Shown one piece after another: positions 17,968-62,132 of a DNA stretch of 64,000 bases. The translations under genes were made by a program, and so were the position numbers. The stretch's first letter is position 1. Each line of letters starts with the position of its first letter. The notes beneath the pieces were generated by a model that worked only from the letters and a program-made list of their open reading frames with translations, searched no databases and was not told the origin of the DNA. The DNA is from an uncultured Clostridia bacterium (lineage in GTDB: Bacteria > Bacillota > Clostridia > TANB77 > CAG-465), in assembly GCA_934149365.1 (NCBI GenBank), contig CAKPEI010000002.1, forward strand, positions 139,767 through 203,766, given 5' to 3'.

Positions 17968-18048
<81 letters not shown>

Positions 18049-18109
18049 AAATGAAGCTACAAAAGTAGCTGTATTTGGCGTGCAAGAAATATATATGAAA
18101 AATATAGAA

Positions 18110-18147
18110 GTTAGTTATGTATAAAAAAGTACATAGCTAACTTTTTT
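18110..18147 (+). terminator. intrinsic terminator/attenuator of leader L1 (12-bp stem + TTTTTT), 34 nt upstream of the gene's ATG
   Basis: GTTAGTTATGTA-taaaaaag-TACATAGCTAAC followed by TTTTTTCTGC. There is no room for another promoter before ATG 18182. Confidence 0.6.
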
Positions 18148-31510: not shown

Positions 31511-34500
31511 ATGCAATTAAAAAGAGTAGAAATACATGGATTTAAATCATTTGCTGAAAAGACAAATATAGAATTTTTAGATGGTGTTACAACTATTGTT
31601 GGACCAAATGGAAGTGGTAAGAGTAACGTTTCAGACGCAATAAGGTGGGTACTAGGAGAACAAAGTGCTAAAAGCCTTAGAGGTTCAAAAATGGAGGATG
31701 TTATATTTGCCGGAACAGAGCAAAGAAAAATGCTTGGACTTGCTGAAGTTACACTTGTTTTAGATAATTCTGATAACAAACTGCCAGTAGAATATAACGA
31801 AGTGGCAGTAACAAGAAGAGTATATAGAAGTGGCGATAGTGAATATTATATAAATAAAAATCAATGTAGATTAAAAGATATTCAAGAACTTTTTATGGAT
31901 ACAGGTGTAGGTAGAGACGGTTATAGTATAATTGGGCAAGGAAAAATCGATGAAATATTGTCTTCTAAGTCAGAAGAACGTAGAAGTATATTTGAAGAAG
32001 CATCGGGAATAGTTAAATATAGAACAAGAAAAGAAGAAGCCTTAAGAAAATTAGAACACACTAATACTAATTTAACTAGAGTTACAGATGTTTTAAATGA
32101 AATAGAAACTTCTTTAGGACCACTTGAAGAAAAATCTAAAGTGGCAAAAAAATATTTGGAATTAAGAGATGAACTTAAAGGTTTAGAAGTTAGATCTTTT
32201 ATTAATACTATATTTAGTGCAGAAGAAGAAATAAATAAAATAAATGAAGCAATAGAAGGACTAGAACAAAGTATAGCAGGTAGTCAAAAAGAGATAGAAA
32301 ATATAGAAAAAGAAAAAGATGAATCTAAGGTATCTCTTGAAAAAATATTATTAAATATAGAAAAAAGTCAAGAGGAATATTTTGAAAAAGCAAATGAAAT
32401 AGAAAAATTAAAAACTAGAATAGAAACTTTTGATGATAGAATGGATAACAACAAAGTTGCTATAGAAAGACTTAACTTAGAAATAGAAGAAGATATGATA
32501 TCTATAGAATCTTTAAAAGAAGATATAGAAAAAAGAAATGTAAAAAAGAAAAACATGTTAGACAATAAAGTTAGATTTGAGCAAGAACTAGAAGAAAAAG
32601 AACTAGAATTAGAAGAATTAACTGCCAACATGACAACTAAAGAACTTGAAATTGAAGAAATAAAAAGATATATTGAATCTTTGAAAGATAAGTTAACTGA
32701 ATATAAAGTGGAGACAAGCTCACTTGAATCAACAATGGAAGCAAACCAAAAAAGAATAGATACTCTTTTAAAAGAAAATACTTCTAATATTTCTTCTGCA
32801 GATAGCATAAGAATTTCTGAAGCTGAGGAAAGAGAAAACTTCTCTAAGATTAAAAAGCAAAAAACAGATTTAGAGGAAGCTATAAAAAACTTGGATGAAG
32901 TAAAAGAAAGAATAGAAATAAACATTACTGGTTTTAATGATAAAGATGCAGAATTTAAACAAAAAATGCTTGAAATAAAATCTAAGATAAACTACTTAAC
33001 TAACTTAGAAAATGAAAACGAAGGATATATAAAGAGCGTTAAAGAGGTAATAGAAAAATCTAAAACAGATGGTACATATGGTCACTCTGTTTATGGAACT
33101 CTTGCTTCTATAATAACAACAGAAGAAAAATATGAAAAGGCAATAGAGATTGCATTAGGTGGATACTTACAAAACATAGTTGTGGAGACAGACAAGGATG
33201 CTAAAGATGCAATAAGATTTTTAAAACAAAATTCTTTGGGAAGAGCAACATTTTTACCTTTGAAGAGTGTTAAATCTTCTAGAGAAGATAATTTTAAAAC
33301 TAAGGAAAGTGGCTTTGTTGGACATGCCATGAACCTAATAAAGTATGACAAAAAATTTGAGAACGTAGTAAGGCTTGCACTTGGCCGAGTTATTATAGCA
33401 GATAATATAGATAATGGTGTAGTTATATCAAAAACTATACCACAAGGAACTAAGGTAGTAACATTAGATGGAGATATAGTAATGTCTACAGGTAGTATGA
33501 CAGGTGGAGCCGCTATGTCTAAAAAAACATCACTTCTTGGCAGAAGCTCTAAAATAGATAAGGCAAAAGAAGAATTGCAAAAACTAGAGAGTGAATATAA
33601 CAAATTTAATGAAAGTATAAAGAGTGATAGAGAGTCATATCAGAATGTTGTAAATGAGATAGAACAAAAAACAGATGAATTACACAAAGTGAACATCGAT
33701 TATAGTGTAACTGAAGAAAAGTTAAATAATATAGTAAAACAATCTGAAAAAATAGCTAATTTGAGAAAAAATAGAGAAGAAGAAAAAGAAAGCTTGTTTA
33801 AACAAAATGAAGAAATAATTGCTAAAAAATTAAGTATAGCTGAGGCTTCTGCAATGATTCAAAATGAAATAGAAATAAAAAATGGTGAAGTAGAAGAGTA
33901 TGCTAGATTTAATAAAGAAAAAGAAGATAATGTTAATTTCTTAAATGAAGATATTGTTAATCTTAAAATATCATTATCATCATTTGACGAATCAAATATT
34001 GCAATAGATGAAATGGTAGAAAAAATAAAAGAAGATATAACATCATTAGAAGCTTCGATAGAAAAGAAAAAACAAAACATAGCTGATTGTCAAAATGAGA
34101 TTGAAAGATCAGAAGAAGATAATAAACAAGATAATGTTAATATAGAAAAATTAAATGAAGAAATTGAAGGTCTTAAGAAATACAACAATACTTTAAAAGA
34201 ATCAAAAACTCAAAATATGGAAAATCAAGCTAAGCTAGAACAAGCATATATTCAGAAACTACAAGATTTAGATAAATTAAGAGATCAAAAAGGAAAGGTT
34301 GAGGGCAAAAGAGTTAAATTCGATATTGAAATAGATGCTCTTAAAAACAAAATGTGGGATGACTATGAGCTTACTATTAGTAGTGCAAAAGAGTACGATA
34401 AAGTAAGTACAGTAGATAAAGAACTATCTAAAACTAAGATAGATAGTAGTATAAACAAGATAAAATCTCAGATTAAATCTTTAGGTGAGGTTAGTGTAAG

Positions 34501-35074
34501 TAGTATAGAAGAATATAAAGAACAGAGCGAAAGAGCTGTATTTATATCTACGCAGAAAAAAGATTTAGAAGAAACCGCAAATAAACTTACTAATTTAATT
34601 GAAAATACTACATCTATAATGAAAACTCAATTTGCAAAACAATTTAAGATAATAAGAGAAAACTTCTCAAAAGTATTTGTTGAACTATTTGATGGAGGAA
34701 GAGCAGATTTAAGATTGTCTGATGAAGCAAACATATTAGAAAGTGGAATAGAAATAGAAGTACAACCACCTGGTAAAAAACTTCAAAATATGATGCTTCT
34801 ATCTGGTGGAGAAAGAGCACTTACTGCCATAGCACTACTATTTGCTATATTAAAAATAAAGACACCACCGTTTTGTATATTAGACGAAATCGAAGCTGCA
34901 CTTGATGATATAAATGTAGCAAGATTTGCTAAATATATTAAAAAATATTCAAAACAAACTCAATTTATAGTAATAACACACAGAAAAGGTACAATGGAAG
35001 TAGCATCTTCTGTATATGGTGTAACAATGCAGGAATATGGTGTATCAAAACTTGTATCTATGAAATTGAAATAA
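31511..35074 (+). CDS. smc: chromosome segregation protein SMC
   Basis: 1187 aa. N-terminal Walker A GPNGSGKSN, long coiled coils, hinge, C-terminal signature LSGGERALTAIALLFA and Walker B ILDEIEAALD. Confidence 0.92.
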   Translation: MQLKRVEIHGFKSFAEKTNIEFLDGVTTIVGPNGSGKSNVSDAIRWVLGEQSAKSLRGSKMEDVIFAGTEQRKMLGLAEVTLVLDNSDNKLPVEYNEVAVTRRVYRSGDSEYYINKNQCRLKDIQELFMDTGVGRDGYSIIGQGKIDEILSSKSEERRSIFEEASGIVKYRTRKEEALRKLEHTNTNLTRVTDVLNEIETSLGPLEEKSKVAKKYLELRDELKGLEVRSFINTIFSAEEEINKINEAIEGLEQSIAGSQKEIENIEKEKDESKVSLEKILLNIEKSQEEYFEKANEIEKLKTRIETFDDRMDNNKVAIERLNLEIEEDMISIESLKEDIEKRNVKKKNMLDNKVRFEQELEEKELELEELTANMTTKELEIEEIKRYIESLKDKLTEYKVETSSLESTMEANQKRIDTLLKENTSNISSADSIRISEAEERENFSKIKKQKTDLEEAIKNLDEVKERIEINITGFNDKDAEFKQKMLEIKSKINYLTNLENENEGYIKSVKEVIEKSKTDGTYGHSVYGTLASIITTEEKYEKAIEIALGGYLQNIVVETDKDAKDAIRFLKQNSLGRATFLPLKSVKSSREDNFKTKESGFVGHAMNLIKYDKKFENVVRLALGRVIIADNIDNGVVISKTIPQGTKVVTLDGDIVMSTGSMTGGAAMSKKTSLLGRSSKIDKAKEELQKLESEYNKFNESIKSDRESYQNVVNEIEQKTDELHKVNIDYSVTEEKLNNIVKQSEKIANLRKNREEEKESLFKQNEEIIAKKLSIAEASAMIQNEIEIKNGEVEEYARFNKEKEDNVNFLNEDIVNLKISLSSFDESNIAIDEMVEKIKEDITSLEASIEKKKQNIADCQNEIERSEEDNKQDNVNIEKLNEEIEGLKKYNNTLKESKTQNMENQAKLEQAYIQKLQDLDKLRDQKGKVEGKRVKFDIEIDALKNKMWDDYELTISSAKEYDKVSTVDKELSKTKIDSSINKIKSQIKSLGEVSVSSIEEYKEQSERAVFISTQKKDLEETANKLTNLIENTTSIMKTQFAKQFKIIRENFSKVFVELFDGGRADLRLSDEANILESGIEIEVQPPGKKLQNMMLLSGGERALTAIALLFAILKIKTPPFCILDEIEAALDDINVARFAKYIKKYSKQTQFIVITHRKGTMEVASSVYGVTMQEYGVSKLVSMKLK

Positions 35075-35088
35075 AAGGCAAAAAAGTA

Positions 35089-35117
35089 TTGAAAAAAGAA
35101 AATAGATAAGGTAAAAT
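35089..35117 (+). promoter_or_regulatory. promoter of leader L2 (TTGAAA-N17-TAAAAT)
   Basis: Same TTGAAAAAAG... architecture as the L1 and L4 promoters. Confidence 0.4.
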
Positions 35118-35160
35118 TAGAACTTGAGAAGAAAAGAAAAAATAACAAAGGAGAAAAGTT

Positions 35161-35292
35161 ATGTTGGCAATAATGCGTGCAAGTGTTGAAACTCTAGAGA
35201 GAAGTACAACTAAAAATATAGCTACAAAAGTAGCTTTAGTTTGCATGCAAAAAATAAATTATATAAAAAACATAAAGTTAGGTATATACTAA
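35161..35292 (+). CDS. leader peptide ORF L2 (43 aa, MLAIMRASVETLERSTTKNIATKVALVCMQKINYIKNIKLGIY), long form ending in the terminator loop
   Basis: AAAGGAGAA ribosome-binding site. Its C-terminal half is homologous to the alternative-frame extensions of L1, L3 and L4 (ATKVA.F/C.QKI...). The stop TAA sits in the loop of the terminator hairpin. Confidence 0.4.
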   Translation: MLAIMRASVETLERSTTKNIATKVALVCMQKINYIKNIKLGIY

Positions 35293-35315
35293 GAAAGTAT
35301 ATAGCTAGCTTTTTT
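35276..35315 (+). terminator. intrinsic terminator/attenuator of leader L2
   Basis: AGTTAGGTATATAC-taagaaa-GTATATAGCTAGCT (14 bp, 1 mismatch) followed by TTTTT. Confidence 0.55.
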
Positions 35316-35485
35316 GAGCTATATGTAAAAGATAAAATAAAGGTATAAACATAGTAAATGCAATTAAAAATGATTGCAAAAATTAAATTAATGTGAAATA
35401 ATATGTATATATTAAAATAATTTGTTTAAAGAATACGAGGGGGTAAAAAATATGGGAACAAATAAAAAACGGTATATCATTAATA

Positions 35486-36652
35486 GTGTTAGTAATAACA
35501 ATAATAGTGATGATAATTTTAGCCGCAGCAATAATTTTATCACTATCAAATAACGGAATAATAGGAAAAGCAGATAAAGCCAAAATAGATAGTGATACAG
35601 CAAGTTTAAAAGAGTATGTAAACACATTAAGAGCAGAGTATGAGCTAATGACAGCAGATGAAAGAAATAGGAAAACATTTGAAGCATATGCAAATGCCAA
35701 ACTGGAAGAAAATGGCTATAAAGGAGCTGCCATAGATGTAGATGGCAAAGTACATTCTAACTTAACTGAATCAGCAAAGACGGCAATAAAAGCAGGAATA
35801 AAAGTAGGAGATAAAGTTGAGGGGTATATATTAACAGAAAAAAGTTATACAACAAGTGGTGAAGAAAATGATGGTATAAAACAAACGTTAAAAACAGATA
35901 CATCAGTAACATGGAAATATATAGGAATAGGAGAAGATGGAAACTTAGAGATAGTAGCAGATATTTCAGCCACTGAAATTTCTAAGTCTGCTGCAGAATA
36001 TAAAATATCGTTATTAGCAACTGGTGGACCAACAGAAGAAACGGGAACTTCTAAGAAAACTTTGACGTTATCAGGAAAAGGTGGATATTTAAATGGACCA
36101 GCAGAACTAGATAAAGCGTGTGCAACACTATATTCAGTAGATGGAAAAGGAACAGCAAAAAGTATGAACATAGACCATGTAACAAGAATATTAGGTTATA
36201 CAGGAGAAAAAGGTTCATATTTGGATGCAGATGGTAATTACGTAAAAACAGCAGAAGCAATGACAATAGGAGAAATAGAAAAAAAACTTGGAACAGAGCT
36301 AAGGTATAGAACAACACCAGATGGAAAAGATATATCAACATATAAATCAGACGATTACTATATAAATAAAACAAGTGATGTAAGTAAAATGCAAAATGCC
36401 GGAAATGTAGGACTAGTATATGGCTCAACAGAATATTGGCTTGCCTCTTCGTCTGTCTATGCAGATTTCAGTAATAAATGTACAGAATTTTATATGCGTT
36501 ACGTGCAATTAGAAGGAGTGGATAGATTTGCTATGTTTAAGTCATTTAATTACTGGGATAAATTTTCATGTGCCATTCGACCGGTAGTTTCATTAGCATC
36601 TAATATTCAGATAGAAAACGGAAGAAATGTTGGTACTTGGGTTATAAAATAG
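35486..36652 (+). CDS. prepilin-like N-terminus protein, paralog 2 (closest to paralog 4); apparent frameshift at the 5' end
   Basis: The ORF track begins at GTG 35486 (MLVITIIVMIILAAAIILSLSNNGIIGKADKAK...). The paralog-consistent ATG at 35452, with a GAGGGGG ribosome-binding site, is out of frame because of an A6 tract at about 35464-35469; A5 would restore MGTNKNGISLIV.... Confidence 0.55.
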   Translation: MLVITIIVMIILAAAIILSLSNNGIIGKADKAKIDSDTASLKEYVNTLRAEYELMTADERNRKTFEAYANAKLEENGYKGAAIDVDGKVHSNLTESAKTAIKAGIKVGDKVEGYILTEKSYTTSGEENDGIKQTLKTDTSVTWKYIGIGEDGNLEIVADISATEISKSAAEYKISLLATGGPTEETGTSKKTLTLSGKGGYLNGPAELDKACATLYSVDGKGTAKSMNIDHVTRILGYTGEKGSYLDADGNYVKTAEAMTIGEIEKKLGTELRYRTTPDGKDISTYKSDDYYINKTSDVSKMQNAGNVGLVYGSTEYWLASSSVYADFSNKCTEFYMRYVQLEGVDRFAMFKSFNYWDKFSCAIRPVVSLASNIQIENGRNVGTWVIK

Positions 36653-36839: not shown

Positions 36840-38618
36840 ATGATACTTGAAAGTTTCGCTATTGCTACTTTTGGTTTAACAGAATTTACTAAAACACAGC
36901 ATTATAGCCTAGAAGAAGATAGTAAAGAAAAAATATTATCAGATGGATTATATCACTTTACTAGTAAAGATGCCGCAGAAAAAATAATGAAAGACGGTTT
37001 TCTTAGACCATCTAAAGGACGTATTAGAAATCATATGGGAAAAGATAAGGTGTATATGTTTGCAGGTATGCCTGATGTTGATAATTTTGCTAAAAATTTA
37101 CCAGCAAAGTTAAACCCATTTATATCAGGGAATTTAGAATTTTCTGCAGTTAAAGTAAATCCGGATGAGCAAGAATTACACAAGTTTAAGGAAAGATTAC
37201 AAGATAGCGCTATTGTATATGAAGGTAGATATGATATAGGAAATAAAGGTAAAGCAGTAGACTTAGTAGTGGATATTGATAACTCAGGAAAATGCACGTT
37301 TAGAGAAAAAACAGAGGAAGAAATACAAAATGGCTATATGCCAAGTGAAGAATTGCTAAAGTATATAGAAGACCATAAGATATCTAAAAAATTTAGTGCT
37401 ATAAGATTACTGGGAATGGAAGTTAAATTTGGAATGTCTTCTATACCTAAAATGCCTAAGAGAGTATATAGAGATTTTAAAGATAAAGCACAAAGAAGAA
37501 AAGAAATAAAAGAATTTGAAAAATATTCATTTAGTATGAATATAAAAGATAGTGATGATGTAGAAAATTTATATAATGTAAATTGCGATAAGCTTGAATT
37601 TTATGGAGATAAGAAATTAAATAGAGTTAATATAGAAAAGATAAATAAGCAAACTGGTGAAAAGGAGTCATATAGATGTTATGCAGACGGCCACTTATTA
37701 AATTTGGGTGATGAAGCTGCAGCAATGTATATGCAAAAAATAGAAGAGGCAAGTCAAAATGGCATGTTGAACAAAATAAATGGAATTGACTATATAGGTC
37801 AGCCTATGTTAGATACAGAAGAAGGTCGTATAACGATAGGTGTTGATGCTAAATTTAATGAAATGTTAAGGGAAAGAAATAGAGCAGAAGAACTTGGAAA
37901 TATAACCAATAAGTCGTACGATATATTTAATACTAAAAAGAAAGAATATTATAGCAAACATCCTTTTAAGAGAATAATGGAAAAGCTAACTGGTAAGGCG
38001 CCTAAAAGACTAGAAAGCAGAGATAATATAGGAAAGTATACAAATAATAAATTAGACAAAGTCGCTATAGAAAATATAGAAACACGTGGGCAAGAAGATA
38101 ATTCATTTATAGCTAGTAAAAAGTGTGAAATATCATATAAAGAAGGAAGCGATTATACAGTATTTTTAGGAGATACAGTTGATTTGGATGGTAAACTTTT
38201 AAGAAAAATAATGATATCTGAAGAAAATTATTTAAATAAAAATGCTATGGATACAGTAAAACTTCCTCAAAATTACTATATTGAAGATTTTGATGTGGAA
38301 AGTGTAAATAAAAAAGATTTGGCTAAGCTTTTTTCTACATTAGGAAGAAATCAAAGAGAAGATAATATAAAAATAGAAAATAATGGTTTTGTTGGAACTT
38401 ATTTAGGCGGAGTAAATATAGATAAAAAAGGCAAAGTTAAAGGAATGACTTATGATAGTACGTTAAAAGAAAAGTATGGTCAGAATATTAATATAGATAA
38501 AGAGGAAGATTCACTTGATATGTCTGAATACGTGAATGCAGAGGAAGTTATAAAAGAGAATTATTCTAAAGGAAATGAATCAAAAGAGATAGAAAAAAAT
38601 ATGGAAAAAGAATTGTAA
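36840..38618 (+). CDS. hypothetical protein (593 aa) lying between two prepilin-like paralogs
   Basis: ATG 36840 after a GGAGGG site; the ORF track starts at 36783. N-terminus DGLYHFTSKDAAEKIMKDGFLRPSKG; no transmembrane helix or signal peptide. Confidence 0.45.
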   Translation: MILESFAIATFGLTEFTKTQHYSLEEDSKEKILSDGLYHFTSKDAAEKIMKDGFLRPSKGRIRNHMGKDKVYMFAGMPDVDNFAKNLPAKLNPFISGNLEFSAVKVNPDEQELHKFKERLQDSAIVYEGRYDIGNKGKAVDLVVDIDNSGKCTFREKTEEEIQNGYMPSEELLKYIEDHKISKKFSAIRLLGMEVKFGMSSIPKMPKRVYRDFKDKAQRRKEIKEFEKYSFSMNIKDSDDVENLYNVNCDKLEFYGDKKLNRVNIEKINKQTGEKESYRCYADGHLLNLGDEAAAMYMQKIEEASQNGMLNKINGIDYIGQPMLDTEEGRITIGVDAKFNEMLRERNRAEELGNITNKSYDIFNTKKKEYYSKHPFKRIMEKLTGKAPKRLESRDNIGKYTNNKLDKVAIENIETRGQEDNSFIASKKCEISYKEGSDYTVFLGDTVDLDGKLLRKIMISEENYLNKNAMDTVKLPQNYYIEDFDVESVNKKDLAKLFSTLGRNQREDNIKIENNGFVGTYLGGVNIDKKGKVKGMTYDSTLKEKYGQNINIDKEEDSLDMSEYVNAEEVIKENYSKGNESKEIEKNMEKEL

Positions 38619-38699: not shown

Positions 38700-38771
<72 letters not shown>

Positions 38772-47044: not shown

Positions 47045-47120
47045 GGGCGCATAGCTCAGTTGGGAGAGCATCTGCCTTACAAGCAGGGGGTCATAGGTTC
47101 GAGCCCTATTGTGCCCACCA
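47045..47120 (+). tRNA. tRNA-Val (anticodon TAC)
   Basis: GGGCGCATAGCTCAGTTGGGAGAGC..., anticodon loop CTTACAA, T arm GGTTCGAGCCC, CCA encoded. Confidence 0.85.
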
Positions 47121-47131
47121 TTTTTTTATTT

Positions 47132-47208
47132 GGCCTGGTAGTTCAGTTGGTTAGAACGCTAGCCTGTCACGCTAGAGGTCGTGGGTTCGAGTCCCATCCA
47201 GGTCGCCA
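47132..47208 (+). tRNA. tRNA-Asp (anticodon GTC)
   Basis: GGCCTGGTAGTTCAGTTGGTTAGAAC..., anticodon loop CTGTCAC. Confidence 0.85.
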
Positions 47209-47219
47209 TTTTTTTATAT

Positions 47220-47295
<76 letters not shown>

Positions 47296-47341
47296 ATAGT
47301 AGTACTAAAAGAAAATATGTTACATATAATATATTAAGAAC

Positions 47342-47417
47342 GCGGGAATAGCTCAGTTGATAGAGCGCTGCCTTGCCAAGGCAGAGGTCGCGGGTTTGAG
47401 CCCCGTTTCCCGCTCCA
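47342..47417 (+). tRNA. tRNA-Gly (anticodon GCC)
   Basis: GCGGGAATAGCTCAGTTGATAGAGC..., anticodon loop TTGCCAA. Confidence 0.85.
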
Positions 47418-47476
47418 AATTTTATGTACATAAGAAATGCTGCTTTGCATATGATGTAGTATAAAATATTATATAG

Positions 47477-47550
47477 GGCGCTATAGCCAAGTGGTAAGGC
47501 ACGAGTCTGCAAAACTCTGATCCCCGGTTCAAATCCGGGTGGCGCCTCCA
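47477..47550 (+). tRNA. tRNA-Cys (anticodon GCA)
   Basis: GGCGCTATAGCCAAGTGGTAAGGC..., anticodon loop CTGCAAA, T arm CCCGG-TTCAAAT-CCGGG; the short D loop is typical of tRNA-Cys. Confidence 0.75.
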
Positions 47551-60592: not shown

Positions 60593-60655
60593 ATGTTAAC
60601 TAAAGAGCATGCAAACGGTATAACTCTAGAGAGAGCATACAATTTAAGAATATAG
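60593..60655 (+). CDS. leader peptide ORF L4 (20 aa, MLTKEHANGITLERAYNLRI) with a short (GA)3 tract
   Basis: GAGGTG ribosome-binding site. MLTK...TLER is conserved with L1 and L2. The alternative frame (minus 2 nt in the GA tract) extends to a TAA at about 60733, in the terminator loop. Confidence 0.4.
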   Translation: MLTKEHANGITLERAYNLRI

Positions 60656-60756: not shown

Positions 60757-60953
60757 CGTCTAAATAAAAAGAAAAGCAAAAATTAATTAAGGTATAATCA
60801 TGATAGTAAATCATGTAAATATACACAGCCATATATACATAAAAAACATAACCAAAAATACATAAAAGCAATTAAAAACAATTGCAAAATTTAAAGTAAT
60901 GTGAAATAATATGTATATATAAAAATTGTTCTAAGAAAATGGAGGAAAAAAGT

Positions 60954-62132
60954 ATGAGAACAAAAGTTAAACTAAAAGGCGGAATATCATTAATAGTATT
61001 AGTAATAACAATAATAGTAATGATAATATTAGCCGCAGCAATAATTTTGTCACTATCAAATAGTGGAATAATAGGGAAGGCAAATAAAGCAAAGACAGAT
61101 AGTGATACAGCAAATTTAAAAGAGTATGTAAATACCCTAAGAGCAGAATGGGAGTTAATGACAGCAGATGAGCAAACAGCAGAAGGTTCATTTGAAGCGT
61201 ATGCAAACAAAAAGCTAGAAAAGAGTGGCTACAAAGGAGCAGTAGGAGCAGATGGAGAAGTATATTCAAACTTAAATGAAAATGCAAGAAAAGCAATAGT
61301 AGCGGGAATAAAGGTAGGAGATGTAGTAACAGGATATACAGTAACATCGACTACATATACAACAGACGGAAGAGAGAATACATGTGACCAAAATAGCCAC
61401 ACAGAAACCAATCCACAACCACAAACCATAACAACAAATACAGATATAACATGGAAATACTTAGGAACAAATGCAAATGGAGAGCTAGAAATAATGGCAG
61501 ATTTATCAACGGCAAATGCAGTAGCAACAAATACAAAAGTAACGTTAGGAGGAAAAGGTGGATACCTAAATGGACCTGCAATGTTAAACACAATATGTGA
61601 AAAGCTATATTCAAAAGAAGGAGTAGGAACAGCAAGAAGTATGAATATAGATGATGTAAATAATATATTAGGATATACAGGACCAAAAGGAACATATTAC
61701 GATAATAATAATAATGAAGTAAAAACACCAACAGCATTAACAATAGGAGAAATAGAAAGTAAACTGGGAACGACATTAGGAAATGGAACAACACCAGATG
61801 GAAAAGACTTAGGAACATATTATGCAGATTATTACTATATAAATAAAACAAGTGATGTAAAAGAGATGGAAAATCCGGGTAATATAGATTTAGTATACAA
61901 TGCTAAAAATACGTACTGGCTTGCTTCTCCATGTGTCAGTATGGCTTTTGGTCTCAGCGATGCAAACTTCCTTGTACGCTGCGTTGGCTCTGCTGGCGTG
62001 GACGCGAGCGGTGCGTTCGGTTCGAATGTCTACTCTAGCATCTATGCGTATGCGGTTCGCCCCGTAGTTTCTCTAAAATCTAATATCCAGTTAACACGAG
62101 ATGCTGGGGAAACAGAATGGAAAATAAAGTAG
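60954..62132 (+). CDS. prepilin-like N-terminus protein, paralog 4 (MRTKVKLKGG|ISLIVLVITIIVMIILAAAIILSLSNSGIIGKA...; C-terminal YWLASP...AVRPVVSLKSNIQ)
   Basis: ATG after a GGAGG site; the ORF-track start 60939 lies inside the ribosome-binding site. The N-terminal ~110 aa and C-terminal ~130 aa are paralogous to the gene at 35486, with a divergent Thr/Asn-rich middle. Confidence 0.6.
   Translation: MRTKVKLKGGISLIVLVITIIVMIILAAAIILSLSNSGIIGKANKAKTDSDTANLKEYVNTLRAEWELMTADEQTAEGSFEAYANKKLEKSGYKGAVGADGEVYSNLNENARKAIVAGIKVGDVVTGYTVTSTTYTTDGRENTCDQNSHTETNPQPQTITTNTDITWKYLGTNANGELEIMADLSTANAVATNTKVTLGGKGGYLNGPAMLNTICEKLYSKEGVGTARSMNIDDVNNILGYTGPKGTYYDNNNNEVKTPTALTIGEIESKLGTTLGNGTTPDGKDLGTYYADYYYINKTSDVKEMENPGNIDLVYNAKNTYWLASPCVSMAFGLSDANFLVRCVGSAGVDASGAFGSNVYSSIYAYAVRPVVSLKSNIQLTRDAGETEWKIK

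Follow-up and report, generated by a model that had tools for sequence, protein, structure and literature searches.

Leader L2 of an uncultured Clostridia bacterium, a probable tract-contracted and locked member of a translation-dependent attenuator family

The window analysed here is a 64,000-nucleotide (nt) stretch of an uncultured Clostridia bacterium (assembly GCA_934149365.1, contig CAKPEI010000002.1). It contains four paralogous leaders, designated L1 to L4, each located upstream of a pilin-like surface-protein gene. Leader L2 retains only a residual dinucleotide tract. It is probably, though far from certainly, a ‘locked’ leader with a contracted tract, belonging to a family of transcription attenuators that depend on translation and lie ahead of such genes. 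Judging from related leaders, its present state is most likely a recurrent and recent allele, generated by tract contraction or leader recombination, and not an ancestral form.

Anatomy of the L2 leader

The L2 region starts 15 nt past the stop codon of a gene encoding an SMC protein of 1187 amino acids (aa) (31511-35074). The following elements were identified, the leader and its terminator being followed by a second promoter-like block and by the downstream gene.

35089..35117, + strand: promoter-like P1 of the L2 leader, TTGAAA-17 nt-TAAAAT, 10/12 hexamer matches, position kept in L1, L3 and L4
35147..35153, + strand: Shine-Dalgarno (SD) sequence AAAGGAG, 7 nt ahead of the leader ATG (sequence reading)
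35161..35292, + strand: L2 leader open reading frame (ORF) of 43 aa with TAA at 35290-35292, fixed in the long frame that reaches the terminator (frame analysis)
35196..35202, + strand: residual tract AGAGAGA, where the paralogues have their (AG)n/(AC)n microsatellite (tract scan)
35220..35235, + strand: hairpin 1, AGCTAC-aaaa-GTAGCT, 6 bp (stem pairing; covarying stems across 15 leaders)
35274..35315, + strand: intrinsic terminator, 16 pairs with one G.G mismatch, loop 35291-35295, T6 at 35310-35315 (fold and compensatory changes)
35355..35418, + strand: conserved post-terminator block with promoter-like P2 and a small palindrome, GCAAT..ATTGC, over the -35 element, 91% identical to 60863-60926 of L4
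35452..35553, + strand: SD-preceded ATG opening a 33-aa dead-end ORF, with A6 at 35464-35469 followed by CGG at 35470-35472 (ORF reading)
35486..36652, + strand: main ORF from GTG 35486, a pilin-like / C-type-lectin-like surface protein (ORF reading, homologues)

The P1-type layout is also found 5' of L1 (17898), L3 (38633) and L4 (60523). Since the number of promoter-like sites in this AT-rich region does not exceed that in shuffled sequences, the support for P1 is its conserved position. The leader ORF, from ATG 35161 to TAA 35290-35292, translates as MLAIMRASVETLERSTTKNIATKVALVCMQKINYIKNIKLGIY. It is gene-called and identical at 10/10 places shown (21 contigs read).

Hairpin 1 is directly followed by the T-rich sequence TTAGTTTGCATGCAAA (35236-35251) and then by an A-rich spacer. 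The RNA after the tract (35203-35316) folds at -28.1 kcal/mol, compared to a shuffle mean of -16.0 (z = -4.71), and 0/200 shuffles were as stable. Both the minimum-energy and the centroid fold of the leader contain hairpin 1 and the terminator alone. The TAA forms the apex of the terminator, spanning the last base of the 5' arm and the loop. From the T-run to the downstream ATG at 35452, 136 nt were measured. A search of Rfam 15 gave no match at the gathering threshold for the leaders of the window, and none at E <= 1 in 35060-35480.

An earlier sequence-only reading of this stretch had described the same 43-aa ORF (35161-35292) with its TAA in the terminator loop, and sequence and frame computation agree with it. 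Its spacing of about 135 nt between terminator and gene start was likewise accurate. The terminator had been drawn as a stem at 35276-35310 with T5, which is right to within 2 nt, the actual hairpin being 35274-35312 with T6. Its statement that L2 has no microsatellite holds insofar as the tract measures only 7 nt; this is not unique to L2, as L4 has only (AG)4, or 8 nt.

Reading frames of the four leaders

Next, the reading frames of the four leaders were compared. The coordinates and states, derived from tract and frame analysis, are as follows.

L1, 17898..18147, + strand: (AG)17 at 18003-18036, short frame, 26 aa; ATG 17968; the long frame needs +1 unit and stops at TAA 18122, at the hairpin apex
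L2: ATG 35161; already in the long frame, no change needed; stop TAA 35290, at the hairpin apex
L3, 38633..38873, + strand: (AC)15.5 at 38736-38766, short frame, 23 aa; ATG 38700; the long frame needs -1 unit and stops at TAG 38864, in the 3' arm
L4, 60523..60755, + strand: only (AG)4 at 60628-60635, short frame, 20 aa; ATG 60593; the long frame needs -1 unit and stops at TAA 60733, in the loop

In each leader a single frame reaches the terminator, while the other two stop 2-17 nt past the tract. For L2, these alternative frames (+2, -2) stop at 35219 and 35211. The earlier proposal that L2 is fixed in the long frame is borne out, and in all paralogues this register ends inside the terminator. 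The same is true for the proposal that L1, L3 and L4 enter the register of L2 after a change of one repeat unit, this being +1 for L1 and -1 for L3 and L4.

The leader family in other Clostridia

When one genome per species was scanned, the downstream gene family turned up in many uncultured gut Clostridia of humans and sheep, and genomes often had at least 10 paralogues. The same leader architecture precedes a subset of these genes. The shared layout consists of a promoter, an SD sequence, an ATG, about 10 codons, (AG)n or (AC)n, a hairpin, GCGTTTTT, an A-rich spacer and a long terminator, and it was found in at least 15 leaders from about eight species. In 12/15 leaders one frame is fully open to the terminator loop; that of the remaining three stops within the 5' arm or a few nt short of it. 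The other two frames contain about 3.7 stops on average. Literature searches turned up no account of this clostridial leader family.

Hairpin 1 is represented by at least six different stem sequences over the 15 leaders, all of which pair and most of which are followed by GCGTTTTT. These stems are AGCTAC/GTAGCT, TATCTAG/CTAGATA, CACTAC/GTAGTG, AACACTA/TAGTGTT, GAATCTAGA/TCTAGGTTT and TTTCTAATG/CATTAGAAG. They were counted directly because the MAFFT alignment of the 15 leaders misplaced hairpin 1 of the L3-type sequences. From this alignment, RNAalifold recovered only six terminator pairs, with compensatory changes in 5/6 of these consensus pairs. The comparison across species is a stronger case against chance than L2 alone.

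The repeat unit also varies. Two leaders of one genome (L009 and L062) have near-identical flanks with AG in L009 and AC in L062, and L3 carries (AC)n where the similar MST.V.ET leader L093 retains a remnant of AG. Leader lineages thus undergo turnover of the repeat unit as well. Separately, a conserved AAGGTATAA(A/T)C lies just 3' of the terminator, followed by a small covarying hairpin (window 35340-35375 and 60786-60812; also L089, L093 and L014), with the variants CATAG..CTATG, CATGAT..ATCATG and CACTT..AAGTG.

Conservation of frame and RNA structure

The extension peptides of the long frame had been considered homologous. Their similarity (ATKVA.FC.QKI) is real for L1, L2 and L4 and reflects homology at the nucleotide level, without conservation of the peptide. 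In a gap-free block of 45 nt from five leaders, the variable sites are distributed 8/4/4 over codon positions 1/2/3, and the pairwise codon differences are 46 non-synonymous versus 10 synonymous. Compensatory changes preserve hairpin 1 in L3 and in leaders of other species, where they rewrite the peptide (SRNKLD, TLQSSG, SNEQTLE). Given this non-synonymous excess and the retention of the hairpin over rewritten peptides, the constraint acts on the open frame and the RNA structure, not on the peptide. The possibility that the L2 leader is a functional small protein was rejected for lack of peptide-level constraint. A search with the 43-aa peptide matched only itself and the peptide of L112, a leader described below.

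Proposed mechanism

In the proposed mechanism, transcription would start at P1 and the leader ORF would be translated. In either short frame, the ribosome would be released just before hairpin 1, upon which the terminator would form and transcription would stop. In the third frame, the ribosome would translate into the terminator and block the hairpin, so that RNA polymerase could read into the gene. A ribosome positioned at TAA 35290 of L2 would hold the whole 5' arm (35274-35290) as well as part of the 3' arm, because the stop codon lies at the apex of the hairpin. Hairpin 1 and its T-run are a plausible pause site, which would let the ribosome catch up with the polymerase. Since AGAGAGA is too short to slip appreciably and its frame is the read-through one, it is plausible that L2 is constitutively ‘on’ at the level of the attenuator. 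Of the earlier description of L2 as constitutive or ancestral, the first half thus remains reasonable, with the restriction to the attenuator; the second half is unsupported, as discussed below.

It is highly improbable that L2-type leaders are regulated attenuators that sense ribosome stalling in the style of trp/his or ermC, with read-through set by ribosome speed or a ligand. The combination of hairpin 1 and a T-rich run does resemble a pause site synchronising ribosome and polymerase, and the long frame is kept open in most of the leaders. However, inspection of the 43-aa peptide revealed no run of regulatory codons, no mutually exclusive antiterminator is present in the minimum-energy or centroid fold, and the peptide sequence is not conserved. 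In addition, no environmental modulator was found in the Streptococcus gallolyticus system (PMC3894217), to which these leaders are compared at the end of this report.

Tract turnover and the polarity of change

Tract lengths were compared among near-clonal metagenome contigs of the same strain, in which the SMC gene is 100% identical. Hadza/MERR samples are among those with this strain. The L3 tract in this population measures 31 nt in most contigs, 33 nt in one and 11 nt in another, and the 11-nt allele sits in the long frame. The L1 tract is 34 nt long in the window and 36 nt in another sample. The L2 tract, at 7 nt, is invariant at 10/10 places examined. Hence, L1 and L3 show both a simple repeat inside the ORF, with a unit not divisible by 3, and tract polymorphism, as expected of a repeat-in-leader attenuator, and L2 shows neither. 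The only variant of L2 is the chimeric L112.

Alongside these observations, an allele of L1 (L090, 1285-1407; window 17968-18124) has a 36-nt tract in the long frame and a change of CAAGAA to CAATAA, which introduces an early stop codon some 50 nt short of the terminator; its hairpin 1 has a G-to-T change. The premature stop may be a second-site ‘off’ mutation.

The lineage of L4 is also polymorphic. Its members have an identical pre-tract sequence of 35 nt, and L4 and L092 are 93% identical after the tract. The predicted states of the alleles are as follows.

L100: 7 nt, long frame, 48 aa, ON
L4 of the window: 8 nt, short frame, OFF
L101: 26 nt, short frame, OFF
L092: 31 nt, long frame, 65 aa, ON

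The 7-nt long-frame allele L100 is the exact analogue of L2. Similar configurations were found elsewhere: L093 has AGAGAGA in a 41-aa ORF with TAA in the loop and an intact gene downstream, and shows no variation among the samples whose contigs extend to the tract; L044 has ACACACA in a 40-aa long-frame ORF. L089 lacks P2 and has a mini-ORF of 6 codons (MKLVIC) that runs straight into the terminator and stops in its loop. L088 has lost the leader ORF together with the hairpins and the terminator, which brings P1 up against the P2 block. L088 (1380-1500) and L089 (1290-1500) precede the same 392-aa L4 protein as window 60954-62132, with upstream neighbours that differ from those in the window. 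L014, finally, has an interrupted tract, ACACACACATACAC, and its paralogue L021 from the same genome (85% identical) has (AC)26.

Contig L112 (1-420) combines the L2 gene start, P2 block and terminator with an L4-type 5' half (MLTREHANGITLE, (AG)9). Its leader is in the long frame (47 aa), its junction lies within 24 nt shared around hairpin 1, and T.G replaces the G.G mismatch in its terminator. As point changes set L112 apart from both parental types, it is unlikely to be an assembly chimera. Taken together, the alleles, the locked forms and L112 indicate turnover of both tract length and leader halves at the timescale of strains.

These data bear on the earlier suggestion that L2 represents the ancestral constitutive form, from which the microsatellite leaders are derived as switchable versions. 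This is unlikely. In its favour, any repeat-based switch must have begun from a repeat-poor leader, the 5' half of L2 is seen only with 7 nt, and the single allele of the L2 gene with a tract, L112, carries a 5' half of L4 type, pointing to import of the tract by recombination. On the other hand, long tracts of both AG and AC occur in close as well as distant leader lineages, a single lineage has 7, 8, 26 and 31 nt with an identical flank, and 7-nt long-frame alleles recur independently (L093, L100, L044). The interrupted tract of L014, whose paralogue has (AC)26, is a sign of decay. The post-tract sequence of L2 is nearest to that of L1 (82%), an (AG)17 leader. Moreover, the nearest reference genome (L067; C-terminal 93 residues of SMC 97% identical) lacks the L2 locus, with neither a leader nor a pilin-like gene directly after SMC. 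In L030 and L022, pilin-like genes directly follow SMC without room for a leader.

Two metagenome scans were made. The first, with the pre-tract sequence of L2, found nothing; the second, with the hairpin pattern, found two loci only, both L4-type. Since the 5' half of L2 has never been seen with a long tract, contraction in the L2 lineage is deduced from its sister lineages, and strict polarity within this 5' lineage cannot be proven.

The promoter-like block after the terminator

P2 consists of TTGCAA (35374-35379), a spacer of 17 nt and AATAAT (35397-35402), with TG ahead of the second hexamer. It is also present in L4 (60882-60910), in L100, in L088, where it is almost directly fused to P1 in place of the deleted leader, and in L104, from which the gene is deleted. 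In L014 and L021, both of another species, P2 was read by eye, of which blastn-short confirmed only a match of 27 nt in L014. The earlier remark that much of the stretch after the terminator is shared with L4 and may hold an additional promoter agrees with these findings, as the promoter-like sequence (35374-35402) is common to L4 and to leaders of another species. As for P1, the case for P2 rests on conservation, because the promoter-like sites are no more frequent than in shuffled AT-rich DNA. P2 is a plausible route by which the gene could escape the attenuator.

The downstream gene and its frameshifted start

The pilin-like frame is open from 35447, without ATG, GTG or TTG before GTG 35486. 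Compared to the intact homologue P0004 (MGTNKRKGISL..), the L2 gene has 2 nt fewer in its A-rich N-terminal stretch, a frameshifted start that the earlier reading did not mention. This frameshift is identical in every contig with the gene, including the mosaic L099 and the chimeric L112, and, being shared by many independent short-read assemblies, the A6 frameshift was rejected as a sequencing error. Going by its sequence, the L2 gene is unlikely to yield an exported protein.

The seventh codon of the dead-end ORF, CGG, does not occur once among the 11,741 codons of 22 long ORFs in the window. If ribosomes shifted by +1 there, they would produce the consensus N-terminus MGTNKKG|ISLIV, a possible rescue of the L2 gene. 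Two paralogues in L030 have similar start frameshifts that would need shifts in opposite directions. Plain indels in A-runs are therefore favoured, and programmed +1 frameshifting as a feature of the family is weakened.

Doubtful, though deserving of weight, is the explanation that the L2 leader is a decaying relic, its locus being a pseudogene or transcribed from P2 only, and the 43-codon frame a residue. The gene start is frameshifted in all copies, and the post-terminator block of L2 and L4 is 91% conserved versus about 78% for the leaders. L088 keeps P2 without a leader, L104 keeps the leader without the gene, and the L2 contigs are nearly clonal, so that their invariance says little on constraint. 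Conversely, the SD sequence, ATG, open frame, hairpin 1 and terminator are all intact, and the main ORF of 388 codons is still open in DNA of 30% G+C, with mosaic versions of the gene having different C-terminal halves (P0007). L093 has the same leader configuration before an intact gene, and the count of promoter-like sites does not rise above shuffles. In L104 (985-1170), the L2 leader and P2 are kept after SMC and are followed by an nrdD-like gene with an ATP-cone N-terminus.

The controlled proteins and other features of the window

The four genes in the window encode a near-identical N-terminus (..KG|ISLIVLVITIIVMIILAAAIILSLSN..) followed by divergent remainders, each behind a leader of the same type. 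Their proteins gave nothing significant in Pfam or NCBIfam and no match in a sequence search of the PDB, and Foldseek against the PDB gave no match with E <= 0.001. The modelled L4 protein (pLDDT 90.4) has a long helix at its N-terminus and globular domains after it.

The homologue P0004 (L093, 2300-4158) is followed by bAvd and a reverse transcriptase, with a MutS_I-like protein also adjacent. Its C-terminal 155 nt match a template repeat, and 25/35 mismatches lie at template adenines. By this mismatch signature, P0004 is probably the target of a diversity-generating retroelement (DGR). The C-terminal residues of the family vary in a matching pattern. A DGR cassette was sought within the 64-kb window and none was found.

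It is rather improbable, but conceivable, that the leaders are exchangeable cassettes, with recombination in the 24 nt around hairpin 1 interconverting locked-on, locked-off and switchable states on top of retroelement hypervariation, and with the L2 frameshift possibly a further conditional layer through a +1 shift at CGG. A tract-bearing 5' half would then be swapped onto a locked leader, as in L112.

Some further observations were made. Of the 26 homologues read, 17 are called from an internal Met (MIILAA...). In L091 (1-1200), a large serine recombinase gene (Resolvase, Recombinase, Zn_ribbon_recom) stops 18 nt short of a truncated copy of the pilin-like gene, and the junction AATAGT|ATTAGTAATAACA falls within the N-terminal coding sequence, which is highly conserved and looks here as though it served as an attachment site. 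Between the L2 gene and L3, an ORF of 592 aa (36840-38618) has as its sole, sub-threshold match a Tox-ART-HYD1 ADP-ribosyltransferase domain (E 0.009). The window also contains 6S RNA (767-915; 48 bits) and five tRNA genes (47045-47547), which are ordinary chromosomal features.

Points that weigh against a locked attenuator

Several points weigh against the interpretation of L2 as a contracted, locked attenuator. Ribosome-mediated antitermination in L2 is proposed by analogy, and coupling between transcription and translation is reported to be weak in some Firmicutes. The long frame of L2 alone is only modestly improbable, since 5.6% of dinucleotide-preserving shuffles also have an open frame from the tract to the terminator loop. 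The attenuator could be rendered irrelevant by P2, and with a frameshifted gene start the ‘on’ state of L2 may have no phenotype. Regarding contraction, no long-tract allele of the own 5' half of L2 has been seen, and L112 is a single contig that may reflect a tract acquired by recombination, making the tract-less allele the older one at the L2 locus.

Significance and comparison with known systems

If these leaders act as proposed, repeat switches in leader peptides that work through a terminator extend beyond the one streptococcus in which the mechanism was described. A dinucleotide version would be spread over many paralogous surface-protein genes in uncultured Clostridia of the human and animal gut. 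L2, L093, L100, L044 and L089 would be natural ‘locked’ alleles, equivalent to controls built in the laboratory, and would let the expression state be predicted from metagenome sequence. Since at least one close homologue (P0004) is a putative DGR target, on/off switching and hypervariation may combine on the same antigens. For L2 itself, the value is mainly corrective: a leader without a tract is not by that fact ancestral.

The closest parallel is the system of the pilus loci pil1 and pil3 of S. gallolyticus. According to Danne 2014, GCAGA repeats in a leader ORF set the length of that ORF; short peptides stop 39 bp before the terminator and give low expression, while long peptides end within or beyond it and give high expression, the ribosome covering about 30 nt and blocking the hairpin (PMC3894217). 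This mechanism is backed by start-codon, triple-stop and terminator-deletion mutants, and in Lactococcus, too, pil1 was functional (PMC3894217). The clostridial leaders resemble this system in having a repeat-containing leader ORF 5' of a surface-appendage gene with a terminator downstream, in the predicted correspondence of the short peptide to OFF and the long peptide to ON, and in natural alleles whose state is predictable from sequence. L2 itself has a leader ORF with ribosome-binding site and start codon, an intrinsic terminator and a frame-dependent stop position; unlike pil1, it is without a functional repeat.

There are further differences. The repeat unit is 2 nt (AG or AC) instead of 5 nt (GCAGA), and one out of three frames would be ON, whereas pil1 turned ON upon gain as well as loss of a repeat (+1 or -1). 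The clostridial leaders add a covarying hairpin with a T-run between tract and terminator, and some copies add a second promoter-like block. They would control a family of many paralogues, in contrast to the sortase-pilus operon of pil1. No sequence relationship connects them to pil1, and their host is an uncultured clostridial lineage.

Attenuation of trp and his in E. coli is similar in that translation of a short leader ORF decides on terminator formation and in that the upstream hairpin could be a pause site. L2 differs by the absence of regulatory codon runs and of a detectable 2:3 antiterminator, and its input would be genotype, i.e. the reading frame, not tRNA charging. In Clostridioides difficile cwpV, the formation of a terminator in the 5' leader depends on a DNA inversion. 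As would be the case for the L2 family, a clostridial surface protein is switched heritably ON or OFF through premature intrinsic termination in a leader; in cwpV this occurs by site-specific inversion instead of repeat slippage, and without a leader peptide. In Neisseria opa and Haemophilus hif, slipped-strand changes in short repeats switch surface proteins ON and OFF reversibly. By comparison, the clostridial repeat sits in a separate upstream ORF and would act on transcription termination, not on the frame of the protein or the spacing of a promoter. The mechanism of the clostridial leaders is most likely that of a repeat-in-leader-peptide attenuator as in S. gallolyticus, in an independent dinucleotide form.

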